Positions 2,520-31,228 of a DNA stretch of 64,000 nt are shown one piece after another (position 1 is the first letter of the stretch; every line of letters starts with the position of its first letter). A program made the position numbers and the translations under genes. The notes beneath the pieces were generated by a model. It was not told where the DNA came from, ran no database searches, and worked only from the letters and a program-made list of their open reading frames with translations. Origin of the DNA: a virus (Duplodnaviria; Caudoviricetes); IMG/VR virus record IMGVR_UViG_3300037755_000987, positions 23,416 to 87,415 of that record; one strand, given 5' to 3'.

Positions 2520-3037
2520 GCGATGCCCGCGAGTGCAACGCCTGTGGCGAACTGGCGCGGTTGCTCGACACGATCCACCTCACCGTCGAGGCGCCGTTCG
2601 AGAAGAAGTCGGCCACCGGCCTCGCCGGCGACGTCCTCTTCCGCACCTGGGAGGTCGACATCGACGCCGCCTGCCTCGACCGACCGCTGCGCGACGTTCT
2701 CGTGGCTGCCTGTATCGGCTTCGGCCTGCCGGCGAGCGAGGTCAAGGCCCCGGTCGAGGAAAAAGCCGGCCGAGGCGGCGCCGAAATGACGAACGTCGAA
2801 ACCGACCGATTCGAGGCTGGCTACCGCGCCGGCCGCCGATCTCTTGCTGAAAGCCTACTCTCGCAACTGTCTCGGGCGCTTGATCCTCGCCAGCAAGACG
2901 CCATCGCCGTGCTGAGCGAACTGGAGTCGGCGCGCACGGCACTGCGTGACCTGGTCGACGAGCCGGACTGGCCGGCAGGCCTTCACCTTCAGGACGTGAT
3001 CGAGAAGTACATCCGTCCGCTGATCCCCGAGGAGTGA
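2516..3037 (+). CDS. Hypothetical protein
   Basis: ATGA overlap with the parB stop; C-terminal part of ORF 1865-3037. Confidence 0.6.
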   Translation: MSDARECNACGELARLLDTIHLTVEAPFEKKSATGLAGDVLFRTWEVDIDAACLDRPLRDVLVAACIGFGLPASEVKAPVEEKAGRGGAEMTNVETDRFEAGYRAGRRSLAESLLSQLSRALDPRQQDAIAVLSELESARTALRDLVDEPDWPAGLHLQDVIEKYIRPLIPEE

Positions 3038-3570: not shown

Positions 3571-5178
3571 ATGGGAACCACCTTTCACCAGCAGAAACGG
3601 GCAGCGCTGCGGAGCTGGCCGCCGCCCGGAATCGACAAGGGCATCCGCGCGGCCTGCGAGCGGATCAACGCCTTCCGCGGCGTCTGCACGACGCAGAGCT
3701 GCGCCGGGCACGTCGAGCCGATCGAGCTGCATGGCCGCCTCTGGCTCCACCTCAACGCCGAGCTACGCTCCCGGCATGACGACCTCGCCCGCGACCTACT
3801 GGCGGCCGGCGCGGGGGTCGAGCAGGCGGGGATGCTCTACGATCGCGAGCCGTGGCCGACGTTCGAGGTGATCTTCGCGCCGTTGCGCGGGAGGGACGTG
3901 GGCGCGGCGGTGTGCGCCTGGCTGACGCTGCGCGGGCTGGGGCTGGAGCCAAGCGCCGCCAGAGACAGGGACCGCGTCGAGGCCGCTGTCGGCGTCTGGA
4001 GCGACCTTGCCGCTGAGGCTCTCGACGAAGCCAAGCGCATGGTCCCCGCCTCGGCCGATGGGAGCGTCAAGCCTCCGGTGATGCGTCCGGCTGCGGCGGG
4101 GACCGGCTTCCCTGGGGCGGGTCCGCGACTTTATGGCGCGCTCCCCCACCCGCCTGCTCGCCGATGGGCCATGTTCCCGGTCGGGAAGATCGAGGACCTC
4201 CAGAGAGGGGACATCGTTCGGGGCGCGGGCGGCGACTCCTATGTGGTCGACCGTAGAGACGGGGTCCGCGCGATCGGCATCCGCACCGTCGCGATCACCA
4301 ACCCCAGCGAGTGGAAGGTGAGGCGCCCGGTCGAGGCGGAGGCCGCCGGTGTCCCGGGCGCCGACTTGATCAAGGAGATGCACCGGGACATCGTCAAGCT
4401 GCGCGTCGCCGAGCAGACTGCCCACCTCCGCATGCTGGCCGCGGTCGAAGACGAGGTCGCCACCCTGAACGGCCCCGAGGCCGCCGGGCCGATCGATCGC
4501 ATGATCCTGCTTACCAGGCGCGGCAGCGGATCGTGGCTGATCACCGAAGGCTACCGCGTCGGCGGATGGCTGGCGCTCGACGAAGCGGTGGCGACCGTCG
4601 CCGCGGTGATGATGGACGACGGCGACCGCCGCGGGCTGGCGAAGAGGATGGAGACGGTCGAAGAGCAGCGCGCGGACCGCGACAGGTGGCGCTCGCCGGC
4701 CGTCGAGGCGAGCGGCGAGGTCGAGGAGGTGGTCGACGCCGAGTACGCGGAACAGCAGTTGGATGGTGTGGCAGTGCGACAGCGACTAGAGGCGGCGCTT
4801 GCGAAACTGGCGGGACTCGACGATGGTCCCGACGGCCAGATCACGCTGGCCCGTGCGTACATTCTCCAGGCCATTACCGGTTGCTCGTCTCCACCGTGGA
4901 AGTTCAAGCTCCTGAACGACTACCACAAGATCTTCAAGTCCCTGTTGGACGAGCTCAAGATCGAACTCGGCATGCCGGAGGCGGGGACAGAGGTGCTGCG
5001 TCGCATCCGGCTGATGCGGGAGGCTTGCGCGGAGCTGCGGCGGTGGTACTACGCGAACGGCGGCGAGTACATCGCCTGCGTCACGCCTCCCCACCGAAAC
5101 AAGGTCGCGCCGACCAACGAGAAGGTGCTGGCGCTCTACCGCGCGTGGGATGCCATCGCCGCCGCGGGGAGGGGGTGA
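3571..5178 (+). CDS. Mosaic hypothetical protein with N-terminal TYW3-like motif
   Basis: 535-aa ORF; GIDKGIRAACERIN...TTQSCAGH. Confidence 0.6.
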   Translation: MGTTFHQQKRAALRSWPPPGIDKGIRAACERINAFRGVCTTQSCAGHVEPIELHGRLWLHLNAELRSRHDDLARDLLAAGAGVEQAGMLYDREPWPTFEVIFAPLRGRDVGAAVCAWLTLRGLGLEPSAARDRDRVEAAVGVWSDLAAEALDEAKRMVPASADGSVKPPVMRPAAAGTGFPGAGPRLYGALPHPPARRWAMFPVGKIEDLQRGDIVRGAGGDSYVVDRRDGVRAIGIRTVAITNPSEWKVRRPVEAEAAGVPGADLIKEMHRDIVKLRVAEQTAHLRMLAAVEDEVATLNGPEAAGPIDRMILLTRRGSGSWLITEGYRVGGWLALDEAVATVAAVMMDDGDRRGLAKRMETVEEQRADRDRWRSPAVEASGEVEEVVDAEYAEQQLDGVAVRQRLEAALAKLAGLDDGPDGQITLARAYILQAITGCSSPPWKFKLLNDYHKIFKSLLDELKIELGMPEAGTEVLRRIRLMREACAELRRWYYANGGEYIACVTPPHRNKVAPTNEKVLALYRAWDAIAAAGRG

Positions 5179-8149: not shown

Positions 8150-9549
8150 ATGGCTGACTCAATCTTCCTCGGTGTCACGACCGCGCCGGCGCGAGACTTC
8201 GTCGCGCGGTGCATCCGCTCGAGGACCTGGAGCCGGATCTACTTTCCTTGCGCTGGCCGCTTCGGGATGGTCGCCGCCTACCTCCGATCAGGGGGCGTTG
8301 GCGCGAACGTCGAAGCGTCCGACATCGGCCTGTTCTCGACCGTCATCGGGTCGCTTGCAAGCGGCCGTCCGCTCGCCGAGCTCGGCATCCGCTTCGAGAC
8401 GACGGTGCCGGATCCGCCGCGGCTCGAGGATGATCTCGACCTGGCGGCGCAGGTGATGCTGGCGCTCAAGCTCGGTCAGCTCCGGCCCAGCTCCCAGCAT
8501 GGCATCAACCATCGCCGGCAGCTCTGCGCGGACTGGCCTCGTCAACACCAGGTAGTGCGGGACCAGGTGGAACAACTGGTCGGCTCGATCGCCGGGAGTA
8601 GCTACGCGGTGCGCGACCTGTGGGACGTGGTCGAGGAGGCAGCCGAGGATCCTGACGCCTGCCTGGCGGTCAACGTGCCGACCTACTCGGGCGGCTACCG
8701 CCGCATGTTCGCAGGCAGCGGGATCGCCTGGGACGAGCCCAGCATCCCGGAGTTCGACCCCAAGACGTACGAGCGCCTGATCGAGCGCCTGGACACAGCG
8801 AAGTGCGCGGCGCTCGTCTACTGCCAGCGGGAGACGACGGCCATCCCAGAAAGCTGGAAGGTGCTGTTCGCCCAGCCCTATAGCACCGAGCGGATCGACA
8901 CCGTCGTCGCCAACCGCGATCTCGGCGTCGACCCGTACGCCGTGCCGGAGAACAAGGCCGTCACGACGCGGCGCTTCCCGATCTACAACGAGGAGGAGAT
9001 CGCCTCTGAGACGCGGGTTTCGTTCGTCCGGGTCGACGCCGAGACGTGCCTCTACTACCGTGACCTCTTCGTCCACAAGCTGGGCGTGACGCGGGGAGAG
9101 AGCTACTTCTTGATGCTCCTCGACGGGCGGGTCGTGACGGCCTCGGGCTCAACACGCAATTCCTCCGCCGGTTTCAGAGCGACTACGTCTATGAGGTCTT
9201 CGGGATCTCGAAGTCGAGCGAGCGCTACATGCGGCTGGGAAAGCTCTTCATGCTGCTGCTGACCTCGATGGACATGAGACGCTACCTGGAGGCCGAGTTC
9301 AGCTTCGGAGTCCGCCAGCCGCTCGGGATTCAGACGACGTCGATCACGACCTTCGCCGAAGGGAAGACCGACCGAGGGGTCATGAAGCTGGTCCACCGCG
9401 AGGACCTGCCGAGTGGCCGGTTCCGAGTCGTCTACCGCGCGGACTTCCGAGACGACACCTGGCCGGACGTCGTCAAGCTGTGGCTCAACAAGTACGGCAG
9501 CAAGAGGCGGCACAAGCACCGCGAACCGGAGGCGAGAGCAGACGCATGA
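8150..9549 (+). CDS. N6-adenine DNA methyltransferase-like protein fused to a C-terminal (possibly Mom/GNAT-like) domain; apparent -1 frameshift near 9142-9145
   Basis: SAM-binding-like IYFPCAGRF and NPPY-like VNVPTY; after VVTA the protein-like sequence continues in the -1 frame (GLNTQFLRRF...YMRLGKLFMLL...) to TGA 9549. Confidence 0.7.
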
Positions 9550-26754: not shown

Positions 26755-26936
26755 CGACCCCTGCCGGCCCCGAACCACGGCCCGCCCCTTCTTCTGCTAC
26801 GCTCGCGCTCGCCAAGGGAGACACACCAAAGGGTGGGGCCGGGGTTGGCGGTGTCGCGCTCGGTCGATCACGGGCTGAACGCGGGTCGTGGTCGCCGCTG
26901 GCCCCGGCCCCCGCTTCGTTGGCATAGCATCCAGCC

Positions 26937-29270
26937 GTGAGCCTCCACGACGACGTCCTCGAGCGCCTGACCGGCTACGGCGCCCGCCTCCACAGCTTCG
27001 ACGACGGCACCGTCTCGCTGATCCGCAAGATGCTCGAGGACCTCGAGGCGTCGCTGGTCGAACAGTTTCGGCTCGCCGACCCGACGGCCATCGCGCGGCG
27101 CACCCACCGCCTCGCCCGCCTCGAGGCCATCCTCGCCCAGACCCGCGCCACGATCGACGGCACCTACGCTGAGCTCGGATCGACGCTGCGCAGCCGCCTC
27201 GAGGAGGTCGCGGGGTTCTCGATCGAGTTCACGCACGGCACGCTCGTCACTATGCTCGGCCCGGTCCGCACGGCGGTCGGCATCAACACCGTCACCGTCT
27301 CGCCGGAGCTGCTGCGCCGCCTGGCTGACGACACGCTCATCTCGATGGGCGGGCGGACCGGAGCGGCGCCGGTCAAGGAGTGGCTCGCCACCCAGAAGGA
27401 CGACGTCGTCAAGGCGTTCGCCGGCCAGATGCGCGAAGGATTGATGCGCGGCGAGGGCATCCCGGAGCTCGCCCGCCGGATCTCCGGCGGTGGCCGGCAC
27501 GACGGCATCGGACCGATCTCGCGGGAGTGGGCGGAGGCCCTGGCGCGCACGGCCAACACGGCGGTGACGGCGGAAGCGCGGGAAGACGTCTACGCCGCCA
27601 ATTCGGCCGTGGTGAAGGGCATCTTCCACGTGACGACCCGTGATGAACGGACTTGCTTCGCTGCCGGCACGCTCGTACGATTGAGTGATGCGTCAGTCAA
27701 GCCAATCGAGGAGATCGTCCCCGGAGACACGATCATCTCCGGTTGCGGCCGCCCTCGAAGCGTCAGAGGAGTCCTCGAGCGGGTCGCCGCCGACTGGCGA
27801 ACGATCGCCATCGCCGGCGGCGAGCTCGTTCACTGCACCGCCACGCACCCCTTCTGGACCGCCCGCGGCTGGCGGGAGGCCGAAGCGTTCAAGCCTGGAG
27901 ACGTCATCGCTGTCGGCACCGTGTCTGGCCTGCGGCGGGACGCTGCCAGAGAAGCCGAAGGGACGGCGAGGGGGACCACTCGGACCTCCGCGCCTCTACT
28001 GCTCGCCGCGATGCCAGGAGAAGGGCAAGAGAAACATCCAGGTGACAGGACGCTGCGAGGCCTGCGGAAACGATTGTCGGTCCTACCCCAGTACGCCGCG
28101 CCGCTACTGCTCGCGAGCCTGCTACCTCGCGGCCAAGGCCAGCACGCGGCTGAAGCTGACGTGCGGGGCGTGCGGTCGCCCGTTCAAGGTGAGGGCCTCA
28201 CGCGGCAAGAGGGAGGGGGGTCGGTCGCCGAAGTACTGCAGCCGGGCGTGCACACGCAAGGCGCTGGGCTTCCGACCGCCACGGGAGAAGGTTTGCGCGC
28301 GGTGCGGCGTCGGCTTTTCGGTCGAGGGCCGGCGAACAGAAAAGGCGAAGTACTGCTCGCTCGCCTGCAAGCATGGGCCGCGGATCGAGCGACTCTGCCC
28401 CTCCTGCGGCGCATCGTTTTCGCATGTCCCGGCGCTGGATCAGGTCTACTGCTCGGTCGCGTGCTACAGAAGGAGTGCCGCCGAAACCCGCACGGAAACG
28501 ATGGTGAGGCTCGAGCTCGAGGAGATGGACCTGCCCTACGAGCAAGAGGTCAAGGTGGGTCGCTACTCCATCGACTTCGTCGTCTGCGGCTGGCTGGCTG
28601 TCGAACTCGACGGGACCTACTGGCACCGCAATCGCCCGGCAGCGAGGAAGGACGCGGCGGTGAGAGCGGCGGGCTACACGCTTCTGAGGATCACCCTCGA
28701 CACGGCGACAGACGAGTCGCGCCTTCGTGTTCTGCGTCTACTGTGCCGCGCCCTTGCGGCTGGGCCGAGGTCGTCGCGATCGAGAGCGATCAGACGCCGG
28801 CCCTCTGTTACGACCTCGAGATCGAAGGCGACCACAGCTTCCTTGTCGGCCACGCCGGCCTGATCGCCCACAACACGATCGTCTGTCTGGCCTACGCCGG
28901 AAAAGCCTTCGTCCGCGACGCCGACGGCTTCTACCAGCCGCTCGGCCACAAGCTCCCGTACAACGGCGGCGTTCCGCGGCACGTCAGATGCCGGTCGGTC
29001 GAGGCTCCGATGGTGCGGTCGCTCAAGGAGCTCGGGTTGAGCGAGTCCGAGGTTCCACCTGAGCTGCGATCCGCCTTCGGCGCCATGCCGCCGGCTGAGC
29101 AGCAGGGCGAGGCGATCCTCGCGGGGCTGAAGAAGAGCCAGCAGCTCAAGGTGCTCGGCCGCCGGCGGTACGACCTCTGGAAGCGCGGCGACGTGGGCCT
29201 CGCGCAGATGATCTCGCCCGACGGCCAGGTGCTCCGCCTCGACGAGATCGCGGCCGCGGCCACCTCCTGA
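26937..29270 (+). CDS. Head morphogenesis protein (MuF / SPP1 gp7-like), intein-containing precursor
   Basis: AEALARTANTAV, TTRDERT[intein]TIVC, PRHVRCRS MuF motifs; one uninterrupted 777-codon frame. Confidence 0.88.
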   Translation: MSLHDDVLERLTGYGARLHSFDDGTVSLIRKMLEDLEASLVEQFRLADPTAIARRTHRLARLEAILAQTRATIDGTYAELGSTLRSRLEEVAGFSIEFTHGTLVTMLGPVRTAVGINTVTVSPELLRRLADDTLISMGGRTGAAPVKEWLATQKDDVVKAFAGQMREGLMRGEGIPELARRISGGGRHDGIGPISREWAEALARTANTAVTAEAREDVYAANSAVVKGIFHVTTRDERTCFAAGTLVRLSDASVKPIEEIVPGDTIISGCGRPRSVRGVLERVAADWRTIAIAGGELVHCTATHPFWTARGWREAEAFKPGDVIAVGTVSGLRRDAAREAEGTARGTTRTSAPLLLAAMPGEGQEKHPGDRTLRGLRKRLSVLPQYAAPLLLASLLPRGQGQHAAEADVRGVRSPVQGEGLTRQEGGGSVAEVLQPGVHTQGAGLPTATGEGLRAVRRRLFGRGPANRKGEVLLARLQAWAADRATLPLLRRIVFACPGAGSGLLLGRVLQKECRRNPHGNDGEARARGDGPALRARGQGGSLLHRLRRLRLAGCRTRRDLLAPQSPGSEEGRGGESGGLHASEDHPRHGDRRVAPSCSASTVPRPCGWAEVVAIESDQTPALCYDLEIEGDHSFLVGHAGLIAHNTIVCLAYAGKAFVRDADGFYQPLGHKLPYNGGVPRHVRCRSVEAPMVRSLKELGLSESEVPPELRSAFGAMPPAEQQGEAILAGLKKSQQLKVLGRRRYDLWKRGDVGLAQMISPDGQVLRLDEIAAAATS
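27653..27681 (+). promoter_or_regulatory. Putative internal promoter for the nested endonuclease (leaderless start at 27688)
   Basis: TTGCTT (27653-58), 17 bp, TACGAT (27676-81), 6 nt, ATG (27688). Confidence 0.65.
27654..28874 (+). mobile_element. Intein (407 aa) in the MuF gene
   Basis: Block A CFAAGTLVRL, block B CTATHPFW, block F/G CYDLEIEGDHSFLV...IAHN followed by +1 Thr. Confidence 0.92.
27688..28863 (+). CDS. Zinc-finger-repeat Vsr/DUF559-type putative homing endonuclease, nested in the intein in the +1 frame
   Basis: Five CxxC...YCSxxC units, then E...YEQE...GRYSIDF...VELDGTYWH...KD...GYTLLRI. Confidence 0.88.
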   Translation: MRQSSQSRRSSPETRSSPVAAALEASEESSSGSPPTGERSPSPAASSFTAPPRTPSGPPAAGGRPKRSSLETSSLSAPCLACGGTLPEKPKGRRGGPLGPPRLYCSPRCQEKGKRNIQVTGRCEACGNDCRSYPSTPRRYCSRACYLAAKASTRLKLTCGACGRPFKVRASRGKREGGRSPKYCSRACTRKALGFRPPREKVCARCGVGFSVEGRRTEKAKYCSLACKHGPRIERLCPSCGASFSHVPALDQVYCSVACYRRSAAETRTETMVRLELEEMDLPYEQEVKVGRYSIDFVVCGWLAVELDGTYWHRNRPAARKDAAVRAAGYTLLRITLDTATDESRLRVLRLLCRALAAGPRSSRSRAIRRRPSVTTSRSKATTASLSATPA

Positions 29271-29843: not shown

Positions 29844-29970
29844 AGGGGGACATCGCGCGCACGTTAACCAGAATAAGATAAAACATGGGGGTGTAGGGGC
29901 TCTTTTATCAGTGGTAAGAAACCACAACCCGCGCGCGCGAGGGGCACCGGCCGCGAAAGAGCCGCCCCGC

Positions 29971-29993
29971 AAAAACCAAGGACGTGGTACGAT
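29971..29993 (+). promoter_or_regulatory. Extended -10 promoter motif, copy 1 (upstream of tnpB)
   Basis: AAAAACCAAGGACGTGGTACGAT; TGnTACGAT; 20/23 identical to 31174-31196. Confidence 0.65.
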
Positions 29994-30026
29994 GGTGACT
30001 CGCTCTCAGGGTAGGCTCGACCAGAG

Positions 30027-31127: not shown

Positions 31128-31173
31128 GCGCCGAAGGCTCAAACGGAGCCACTACCCAAAAAGAGCTTTCCCG

Positions 31174-31196
31174 AAAAACCTAGGAAATGGTACGAT
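31174..31196 (+). promoter_or_regulatory. Extended -10 promoter motif, copy 2 (downstream of tnpB)
   Basis: AAAAACCTAGGAAATGGTACGAT upstream of GGAGG and ATG 31229. Confidence 0.65.
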
Positions 31197-31228
31197 CCAA
31201 GAACACCACCTCTCCGCACGGAGGCGAC

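Follow-up and report, generated by a model that had tools for sequence, protein, structure and literature searches.

A putative leaderless promoter overprinted on the splice junction of a phage MuF-type intein that carries a nested Vsr-like nuclease gene

How a nuclease gene hidden out of frame inside an intein is expressed is the question raised by this locus, which lies in a 64,000 nucleotide stretch of the genome of an uncultured, metagenomic Caudoviricetes phage (positions 23,416 to 87,415 of IMG/VR record IMGVR_UViG_3300037755_000987, here called the window). Inteins whose nuclease gene is out of frame or antisense have been described in papers from 2025–26 (bioRxiv 10.1101/2025.01.02.630785; bioRxiv 10.64898/2026.09.14.751524; the hidden HNH of ShiLan, PMC11855218). 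None of these three papers mentions a promoter, and the cyanobacterial dnaX intein paper suggests Shine-Dalgarno (SD) motifs (bioRxiv 10.64898/2026.09.14.751524). The recent preprints leave the expression of the hidden genes open; a conserved leaderless promoter, if true, would provide the answer for one clade.

The intein interrupts a MuF-like head-morphogenesis gene on the forward strand (26937..29270). This gene comprises 777 codons with zero stops, its frame is open throughout, and it has a weak match to Phage_Mu_F (residues 164–240) as well as matches to Intein_splicing/Hint. The intein occupies 407 codons of it (27654..28874, forward strand), from Cys1 (TGC, 27654–56) to the His-Asn pair (28869–28874), which is followed by the +1 Thr. 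The splicing blocks are intact (Cys1, T-x-x-H, His-Asn and +1 Thr), and the middle ~290 intein codons are frame-shadow sequence. The insertion site (..D-x-R-T|C-F..) is common to about 20 other loci, and fractured versions of MuF with the same insertion site are found at L012 and L102. The MuF-intein protein has an identical copy in a second sample (P0155), which is a second copy of the phage.

The nested nuclease gene is on the same strand in the +1 frame (27688..28863, 392 codons, with an in-frame GTG at 27685). It begins with a 78-codon overprinted leader, and homologues are lacking for residues 1–74, where none of the nuclease's 2093 relatives aligns. Five zinc modules of the form CxxC...YCSxxC come next (Cys codons at 27922, 28054, 28162, 28294 and 28396), followed by a Vsr-like nuclease core at 28486–28725. 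The core matches the I-Bth0305I structure (PDB 3R3P, residues 268–347, E=1.3e-3), the protein scores 23.0 bits against Pfam DUF559 (cutoff 20.6), and its MTES_1575 score of 28.4 is under the cutoff of 38.2. All five modules are present, and the invariant D, E.DG and W residues of the nuclease alignment are kept. The product is predicted to be a homing endonuclease of free-standing type, with zinc-ribbon repeats and a Vsr-like/I-Bth0305I-type core.

The original prediction held that a promoter spans the extein/intein junction and gives this nuclease a leaderless mRNA. The layout that it described is present: a -35-like hexamer TTGCTT (27653..27658, forward strand), a 17 nt spacer (CGCTGCCGGCACGCTCG), a -10-like hexamer TACGAT of the TANNNT type (27676..27681, forward strand) and, after 6 nt, the ATG proposed as 5'-terminal start (27688..27690, forward strand). 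The 6 nt gap is TGAGTG, formed by a TGA stop (27682–84) and the in-frame GTG at 27685. The -35-like box is indeed made from the last base of the extein Thr codon and the codons of Cys1 and Phe2 (ACT|TGC TTC); because Cys1 is the TGC at 27654–56, the Thr codon gives just the first T. The -10-like box lies inside GTA-CGA-TTG. The three codons of the -10-like box were said to be rare, and in this phage they are, as is the ACT of the -35-like box: GTA makes up 1.3–1.6% of Val codons, CGA 7.5–7.9% of Arg, TTG 6.5% of Leu and ACT 2.6% of Thr, while AGT and TCA just 3' of the boxes have a usage of 1–2%.

The signature of leaderless mRNAs in high-GC bacteria is TANNNT about 12 nt ahead of the start codon (PMC3160421, PMC3898074, PMC4007540). 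The first T of TACGAT is 12 nt before ATG 27688, the position given for this signature in PMC3160421. Such an arrangement is rare in the window, which has 70% GC: TANNNT occurs 5–9 nt before 14–15 of 2757 ATG/GTG codons, and a TTG 16–18 bp above such a TANNNT is found for one of the 2757, 27688 alone. The rate of the full TTG..TANNNT..start pattern is ~0.2% in other GC-rich loci. The motif agrees with the consensus at 7/12 positions, four of six in the -10-like box and three of six in the -35-like box, where TTG alone matches. A scan of 22–34 kb for consensus promoters made zero calls, the junction site therefore being sub-threshold by the E. coli rules of the scan. The -35-like TTG at 17 bp spacing, uncalled by the scan with its 3/6 match, is kept, including the rare ACT, in two relatives (L010 and L111). 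The junction motif in the window has no extended -10.

TACGAT had also been said to occur in promoters on both flanks of tnpB. The hexamer does stand beside tnpB at 29988 and 31191, in each case as part of TGGTACGAT, which makes an extended -10, and without a -35; five other copies are ordinary in-frame Tyr-Asp codons. This likeness was rejected as meaningful support for the junction motif, the flanks being of another promoter type and most of the other copies being Tyr-Asp codons. The relatives of the TnpB protein do not cluster in one phylum but occur in Chloroflexota, Acidobacteriota, Actinomycetota and Deinococcus.

The same-strand, +1-frame nuclease layout recurs in L009, L010, L016, L017 and L111, and the sense clade has 100/100 support in the tree. 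The motif is carried by three loci only: the window, L010 and L111. L010 has TTGTTT-17-TACACT-6-GTG at the same codons, with the GTG at offset +34 as in the window, and L111 has TTGTTT-17-TGG TACGAT-9-ATG, again at the same codons, with the ATG at +37. The -10-like box lies at an offset of +22 from Cys1 in each of the three. T|TGY TTY, 17 bp and TACNNT are kept at equal codons in very distant loci; in the -10 the opening TA and the last T never change, and the middle positions vary. The three loci otherwise have 40–55% DNA identity, with synonymous differences adjoining the motif and protein branch lengths of 0.7–1.6.

The original prediction proposed conservation of these codons in homologous inteins as a check, and its outcome is positive, through the rare codons shared with L010 and L111. 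Both reuse ACT, GTA and TTG, codons that are rare in GC-rich genomes but not rare in L111. The window and L010 have four rare codons in common, three of which are ACT, GTA and TTG; GC-rich pairs of loci share 0–2 per ~40 identical residues. The rest of the arrangement co-varies with the boxes. In the boxed loci an ATG or GTG in the +1 frame lies 6–9 nt past the -10, and in 3/3 the +1 frame is open from this start to the nuclease, or to within 16 nt of it; the chance of such an open frame is 0.38 in the window and 0.027 and 0.13 in the other two. The two sense relatives without boxes (L009 and L016) have several +1 stops and SD-led internal starts, and sense loci with GIY-YIG or HNH nucleases likewise have SD-led internal starts and are without the motif. 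A look-alike motif at L011 is probably due to chance; it heads a 14-codon ORF in DNA of 41% GC, and the +1 frame is not open to the nuclease.

Inteins at the same site served as controls, and the junction motif is present in none of ten (8 antisense, 2 mini-inteins). Antisense nested nucleases of the same family have a -10 box of their own: in seven of ten it stands 5–7 nt before the ATG or GTG (background 1.2%), as TATAAT, TAGAAT, TACAAT, TACTCT, TATCAT or TAGATT, and the other three have TATAAT 13–40 nt upstream. P0021 was considered as an added member of the sense clade and rejected; it is another antisense case without the junction.

Searches for further members of the clade covered several collections. 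A scan for the intein N-domain gave no match in genome contigs and one locus in metagenomes. A DNA pattern of the C-terminal part of the intein found nothing in viral contigs, the leader of L111 found nothing when compared with protein sequences, and cultured phages gave generic Hint matches only. The terminase large subunit (TerL) has at most 26.5% identity to those of known phages.

The start codons of the window bear on how the nuclease is translated. In the +1 frame the only canonical starts 5' of the first zinc module (Cys codon 27922) are ATG 27688 and GTG 27685, and the 20 nt before ATG 27688 contain no SD. In this phage the start of most genes is preceded by GGAGG or GGAG at a distance of 4–10 nt, and no other convincing leaderless-type gene start was found in the whole 87-kb phage record. 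An SD-led TTG start by the first zinc module is kept in L111, L010 and L017 and is gone from the window, so that the upstream ATG is the window's only canonical nuclease start. In L010 and L111 a 5'-terminal start could be incidental, because the SD-led TTG by the zinc modules could be used for translation.

We therefore propose, as slightly the better-than-even reading of these sequence comparisons, that the intein carries a putative promoter which gives the nuclease a leaderless mRNA. One extein base and the 35 intein bases that follow it would double as a promoter of the sigma-70/sigma-A type (TTGCTT, 17 bp, TACGAT). Transcription by RNA polymerase would begin at the A of ATG 27688 or beside it, and ribosomes would translate from the 5'-terminal AUG without an SD site; the phage host may be competent for leaderless translation. 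The nuclease would be made with an overprinted leader of 78 residues at its N-terminus. On the late MuF message the internal AUG, being without an SD, would be poorly used, and the nuclease would be produced independently of that message, probably earlier and at a lower level. What the sequences show is the motif, how rare it is, that it is conserved and co-varies at codon level in relatives, and the -10/start geometry across the family; that the promoter is active, where transcription starts, that translation is leaderless and when the nuclease is made are inferred.

The original prediction is partly supported: its idea of a promoter across the junction passes the comparative test, through the L010 and L111 codons, the +1 start, the open frame and the antisense geometry, and two attached claims go too far. 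The promoter was said to be complete only after insertion at the homing site; one T does come from the extein ACT, and 11 of the 12 box bases are inside the intein. The promoter was also to explain why the out-of-frame layout works, for which it is not needed, since L009, L016 and the GIY-YIG and HNH sense loci use SD-led internal starts.

Other explanations of the conserved bases have to be weighed. They could form a translation-initiation region, in which ATG 27688 is used internally on the long MuF mRNA within an A/T-rich, unstructured stretch without an SD. A same-strand gene strictly needs no promoter, the +1 frame is open from the ATG in the window and in L111, and six of the ten codons at 27675–27704 are rare, A/T-ending and clustered round the ATG. 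We consider this unlikely, as it accounts neither for the conservation of the ACT codon's T, which is 35 nt upstream, nor for the exact T-A-n-n-n-T at -12 with its variable middle; moreover, ribosomes initiate inefficiently at SD-less sites within an ORF that is itself being translated, and clear SDs serve the other sense loci. Equally unlikely in our judgement is that the motif is unused here, the upstream open frame being due to chance and the nuclease starting downstream on the MuF mRNA, at CTG 27910 or GTG 28042. The near-cognate CTG (GGAG-9 nt-CTG, 27897..27912, forward strand), which the original prediction itself listed as an alternative, could be such a start, because the window keeps the GGAG 9 nt before it, near the TTG start of L111 and L017; the adjacent TCG 27907 aligns with the SD-led TTG of L111. 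The starts nearby in relatives are GGGAG-6 nt-TTG in L111, GAGGGAGG-9 nt-TTG in L010 and a TTG in L017, no homologue aligns with ORF residues 1–74, chance alone would leave the +1 frame open with P=0.38 in this GC-rich DNA, and the region where P0003 starts falls at GTG 28042 in the alignment. CTG, however, serves very poorly as a start codon in bacteria, no SD is suitably spaced from GTG 28042, a start there would lose the first zinc module, which is intact, and the conserved rare codons of L010 and L111 would be left unexplained.

The conserved nucleotides could instead have another role in DNA or RNA, such as binding the nuclease or a regulator, or signalling recombination or pausing, with the likeness to a promoter coincidental. 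T4 intron endonucleases do bind operators near their own genes (PMC2988022), and the sample is three loci. This seems quite improbable, given that in 3/3 loci the conserved positions are exactly the informative ones of a promoter (TTG in the -35; T, A and the last T in the -10), with boxes 17 bp apart and a start codon at the distance expected; pausing would in addition need codons rare in each genome, and they are not rare in L111. The absence of a canonical SD-led start, with TCG and CTG in place of the relatives' TTG, might also mark a nuclease no longer expressed, in a decaying gene where the motif is a relic. We think this very improbable for a 392-codon ORF that is intact, with its five zinc modules and invariant catalytic residues, and whose MuF-intein protein is identical in the second sample. 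Programmed frameshifting from the intein frame into +1 would fit the finding that 10/10 same-strand nested nucleases are in +1 and none in +2. This preference is explained by easy stop avoidance in the host frame and shared ancestry, and the relatives have SD-led starts of their own; frameshifting, the least probable reading, was rejected because 27654–27960 contains no slippery X XXY YYZ heptamer or homopolymer run.

The intein-carried promoter is the reading that we favour. A broader statement, to which we give a little under even chances, is that the Vsr-like nuclease genes nested in MuF inteins are as a rule autonomous leaderless transcription units, whose -10 is overprinted on Hint codons in either orientation. 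The nuclease would then be made early, sparingly and uncoupled from the late structural message. The same-strand promoter would, since it straddles the splice junction, travel with the intein and the co-converted last extein base.

The arrangement resembles the non-canonical inteins of the actinobacteriophage survey, cyanobacterial dnaX and ShiLan, in which the nuclease is nested off the splicing frame and the host frame is open; phage minor-capsid or MuF-type host genes and a Vsr-like nuclease are also shared with such inteins. Their nucleases are antisense and VSR-like or in frame 3 and EndoVII-like, whereas here a VSR-like nuclease is on the same strand in +1. For the dnaX intein SD motifs are suggested, whereas the window has a conserved promoter-like element that is written across the splice junction into block A of the intein and leads to a candidate leaderless start. 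The same-strand junction promoter appears to be new.

Endonucleases that have a promoter to themselves within the transcription unit of the gene they interrupt, and whose expression is uncoupled from that gene, are known from T4 I-TevI/II/III (PMC2988022), and, as cited there, Aeh1 mobE has its own promoter within the host-gene transcription unit (Gibb and Edgell 2007); the promoter here is putative. The T4 and Aeh1 promoters lie in non-coding intron or intergenic DNA and give leadered mRNAs with RBS-sequestering hairpins, whereas in the window codons of a protein spell the boxes and a leaderless mRNA would result. In 'fractured genes' a free-standing Vsr-like or GIY-YIG endonuclease gene lies between the halves of a split intein (Dassa et al. 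2009, PMC2677866). The likeness is that the endonuclease behaves as a gene in its own right and comes with control elements; the difference is that the intein here is unbroken, with a reading frame that runs on across the nuclease gene. The nuclease family is shared with I-Bth0305I (PMC3239194, PDB 3R3P). The position of the -10, the TANNNT and the lack of an SD are as in high-GC leaderless mRNAs (PMC3160421, PMC3898074, PMC4007540), but those have intergenic promoters and belong to cellular genes, whereas this motif is inside the ORF of a phage structural gene.

If the promoter is real, the same 35 bases hold three layers of information, namely the splice junction with Hint block A, a promoter and the beginning of another protein, and the timing of a selfish nuclease apart from an essential late gene would be explained. 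Looking inside inteins for start codons that have a -10 some 6 nt ahead of them would also be a search rule for hidden nuclease genes in phage annotation.

The phage record that holds the window is 87.4 kb long with about 70% GC (IMG/VR). Its MuF-like head-morphogenesis gene (26937-29270, plus strand) is host to an intein of 407 codons on the same strand (Cys1 = TGC 27654-56; His-Asn end 28869-74; +1 residue Thr), the middle of which is frame-shadow sequence. The nested nuclease ORF lies in the +1 frame (27685-28863, plus strand) and comprises a Vsr-like nuclease core together with five zinc modules of the pattern CxxC...YCSxxC. This core matches Pfam DUF559, MTES_1575 (below that family's cutoff) and the structure of I-Bth0305I (PDB 3R3P, E=1.3e-3), and the nuclease has ~2,100 representative relatives. 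A second copy of the MuF-intein protein, P0155, comes from an independent sequencing run (Logan SRR12681864, 28.6-kb contig); it is identical apart from an M/V difference at the first residue, and its neighbours are those of the window, tnpB included. GTG 26937 is the first possible MuF start and a candidate for the true one. It too has a TANNNT (TAGCAT) 6 nt upstream and no SD (26922-26939), but the ORF before it terminates at that TAG.

The original prediction placed a promoter across the extein/intein junction, and the layout it described, TTGCTT-17-TACGAT-6-ATG, is exact in the window. The -35-like TTGCTT (27653-58, plus strand) takes only its first T from the extein, in codon ACT, and the -10-like TACGAT (27676-81, plus strand) follows a 17-nt spacer and precedes ATG 27688 by 6 nt. 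The box codons are indeed rare in the phage (ACT 2.6%, GTA 1.3-1.6%, TTG 6.5%), and six codons of the ten-codon stretch 27675-27704 are rare too. GGAGG or GGAG is present before most genes of the phage, and SD is absent upstream of ATG 27688. TANNNT stands at the right distance before 14-15 of the 2757 ATG/GTG in the window, and only ATG 27688 also has TTG 16-18 bp further up. The match to the E. coli consensus is weak (7/12), and a standard scan by E. coli-type consensus did not call the window motif. Across the whole 87-kb record no other convincing leaderless-type gene start was found. TACGAT had also been described as common to the junction and the tnpB flanks; copies exist there, but the tnpB sites are TGGTACGAT, an extended -10 without a -35, and both flanking repeats (29965-29996 and 31168-31199) carry AAAAACCnAGGAnnTGGTACGAT, a site of this type. 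The 9-mer TGGTACGAT is identical in the junction of another locus, L111. The five other TACGAT copies in the window are Tyr-Asp codons.

About 20 MuF inteins at the window's insertion site were gathered regardless of boxes. Same-strand Zn + Vsr-like nucleases are found in the window, L009, L010, L016, L017 and L111, same-strand GIY-YIG nucleases in L011 and L015, and a same-strand HNH nuclease in L106. Antisense Zn + Vsr-like nucleases are found in L098, L100, L101, L105, L107, L108, L110, L112 and the L005 family, and at a different MuF site in L013; L099 and L103 are mini-inteins. In L012 and L102 the MuF gene is fractured, with a broken intein frame and a same-strand nuclease. The nucleases fall into a sense and an antisense clade, each with 100/100 support, and branch lengths are 0.7-1.6 changes per site. 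Relative to the intein, all same-strand nested nucleases seen, in three nuclease families and eleven loci, use the +1 frame and none uses +2, likely because the synonymous third-position choices of the nuclease can always avoid host-frame stops.

The box codons are conserved at matching positions in two homologous inteins, L010 (ACT|TGT TTC ... GTA CAC TTG, giving TTGTTT-17-TACACT-6-GTG) and L111 (ACT|TGT TTT ... TTG GTA CGA TTG, giving TTGTTT-17-(TGG)TACGAT-9-ATG), whose start codons lie in the +1 frame at +34 or +37 from Cys1. Invariant in these three loci, the only carriers of the motif, are the -35 TTG and, in the -10, the initial T and A and the last T; the middle -10 positions vary, once with an amino-acid change. 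Elsewhere the three share 40-55% DNA identity, and adjacent codons differ synonymously. For every ~40 identical residues, GC-rich pairs have 0-2 rare codons in common; four are common to the window and L010, among them ACT, GTA and TTG. The +1 frame is open from the start codon in all three, with a chance by synonymous-codon resampling of 0.38 in the window and of 0.027 and 0.13 in the other two. This open frame is continuous with the nuclease in the window and L111; in L010 it ends 16 nt short of an SD-led TTG. L009 and L016 lack the motif (ACC/ACA, GTG/GTC and CTG/ACG at the box codons). Their +1 frame contains several stops, and they have other starts; the SD in L016 is clear (GGAGGA-8 nt-ATG). 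The motif is also absent from 8/8 antisense and 2/2 mini-intein controls. A look-alike in L011, in 41% GC DNA, heads only a 14-codon ORF and was counted as chance. The three motif-positive loci fall on either side of the sense-clade root, so the junction element seems to be an ancestral one that was maintained, and was lost in L009 and L016.

In the proposed mechanism an intein-borne promoter over block A and the splice junction would place the transcription start at ATG 27688. Translation of the resulting leaderless mRNA would yield the nuclease with an overprinted leader of 78 residues, produced independently of late MuF transcription. The window motif fits the TANNNT at minus 12 that marks leaderless genes of high-GC bacteria (PMC3160421). 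The predicted promoter and leaderless message are supported in part, by box conservation in L010 and L111, and set against them are the weak consensus match, the restriction to three loci and the absence of any other convincing leaderless-type gene start from the record. On these sequence comparisons we give a functional junction promoter with a leaderless or near-leaderless message slightly better than even chances. That the conserved bases are purely a translation-initiation region, with no promoter, is improbable; this would account for the A/T-rich cluster, but it leaves the conserved T 35 nt upstream unexplained.

The only canonical +1-frame starts before the first zinc module (27922) are GTG 27685 and ATG 27688. 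L111, L010 and L017 have an SD-led TTG beside this module, which could do the translating in L010 and L111. The window lacks it, so the upstream ATG 27688 is its only canonical option; GGAG is kept 9 nt upstream of CTG 27910, which is possible as a weak start. Window 27907-27912 (TCG 27907, CTG 27910) resembles a lost or weakened canonical start. Frameshifting into the nuclease frame was rejected, as no slippery site was found in 27654-27960.

Antisense nested nucleases require their own promoter, and each one examined has an evident -10 box. The gap to the start is 6 nt in L100 (TATAAT, 2721-2747, minus strand), L101 (TACTCT, 4030-4056, minus), L105 (TACAAT, 389-415, plus), L108 (TGC-TATAAT, 8507-8533, plus) and L110 (TGA-TAGAAT, 1269-1295, plus), all five starts lying four codons ahead of the first Cys; it is 5 nt in L112 (TAGATT, 255-274, plus) and 7 nt in L107 (TGA-TATCAT, 2470-2491, minus). 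In L005, L013 and L098 TATAAT is 13-40 nt upstream of the start, with an SD in L013. The -10/start geometry of the seven loci with a 5-7 nt gap is of the leaderless type, written over the strand opposite the coding region of the intein C-terminus, and TANNNT at a 5-7 nt gap precedes 1.2% of ATG/GTG in the antisense loci. From the geometry against this background, leaderless-type expression appears common for Zn + Vsr-like nucleases within inteins.

Out-of-frame and antisense intein nucleases are already known as a general kind. Phage inteins, including ones in minor-capsid genes, that carry antisense VSR-like or out-of-frame nucleases are described in 2025-26 preprints (bioRxiv 10.1101/2025.01.02.630785; 10.64898/2026.09.14.751524) and the ShiLan paper (PMC11855218), none of which mentions a promoter. 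A 2009 paper reported Vsr-like nucleases lying between the two halves of split inteins (PMC2677866), and nuclease-specific promoters within host transcription units are classic in T4 introns (PMC2988022). What appears new here is a same-strand +1 Vsr-like layout in which the splice junction bears a conserved promoter-like element and the nuclease has a putative leaderless start.

The fractured MuF genes of L012 (1844-4278) and L102 (5672-8083) consist of three overlapping ORFs, in the order N-extein + Hint-N, Zn+HNH nuclease gene, and Hint-C + C-extein; in split-intein form they correspond to the read-through layout. L010 (3-4709) is a single MuF-fusion ORF with two inteins, the first at ..DGRT|CF with its +1-frame nuclease at 982-1788, the second starting with Ala (..FHYN|AIPRG) and carrying an antisense DUF559-type gene (1935-2810). 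L011, L015 and L111 likewise have a second intein, which lies at the PPxH(I/Y/H)N site. The phage MuF gene on L111 (NCBI JALAHR010000367.1), a 2.5-kb contig in a Nitrososphaera MAG bin, contains two inteins as well as nested nucleases; the contig is probably a mis-binned phage fragment.
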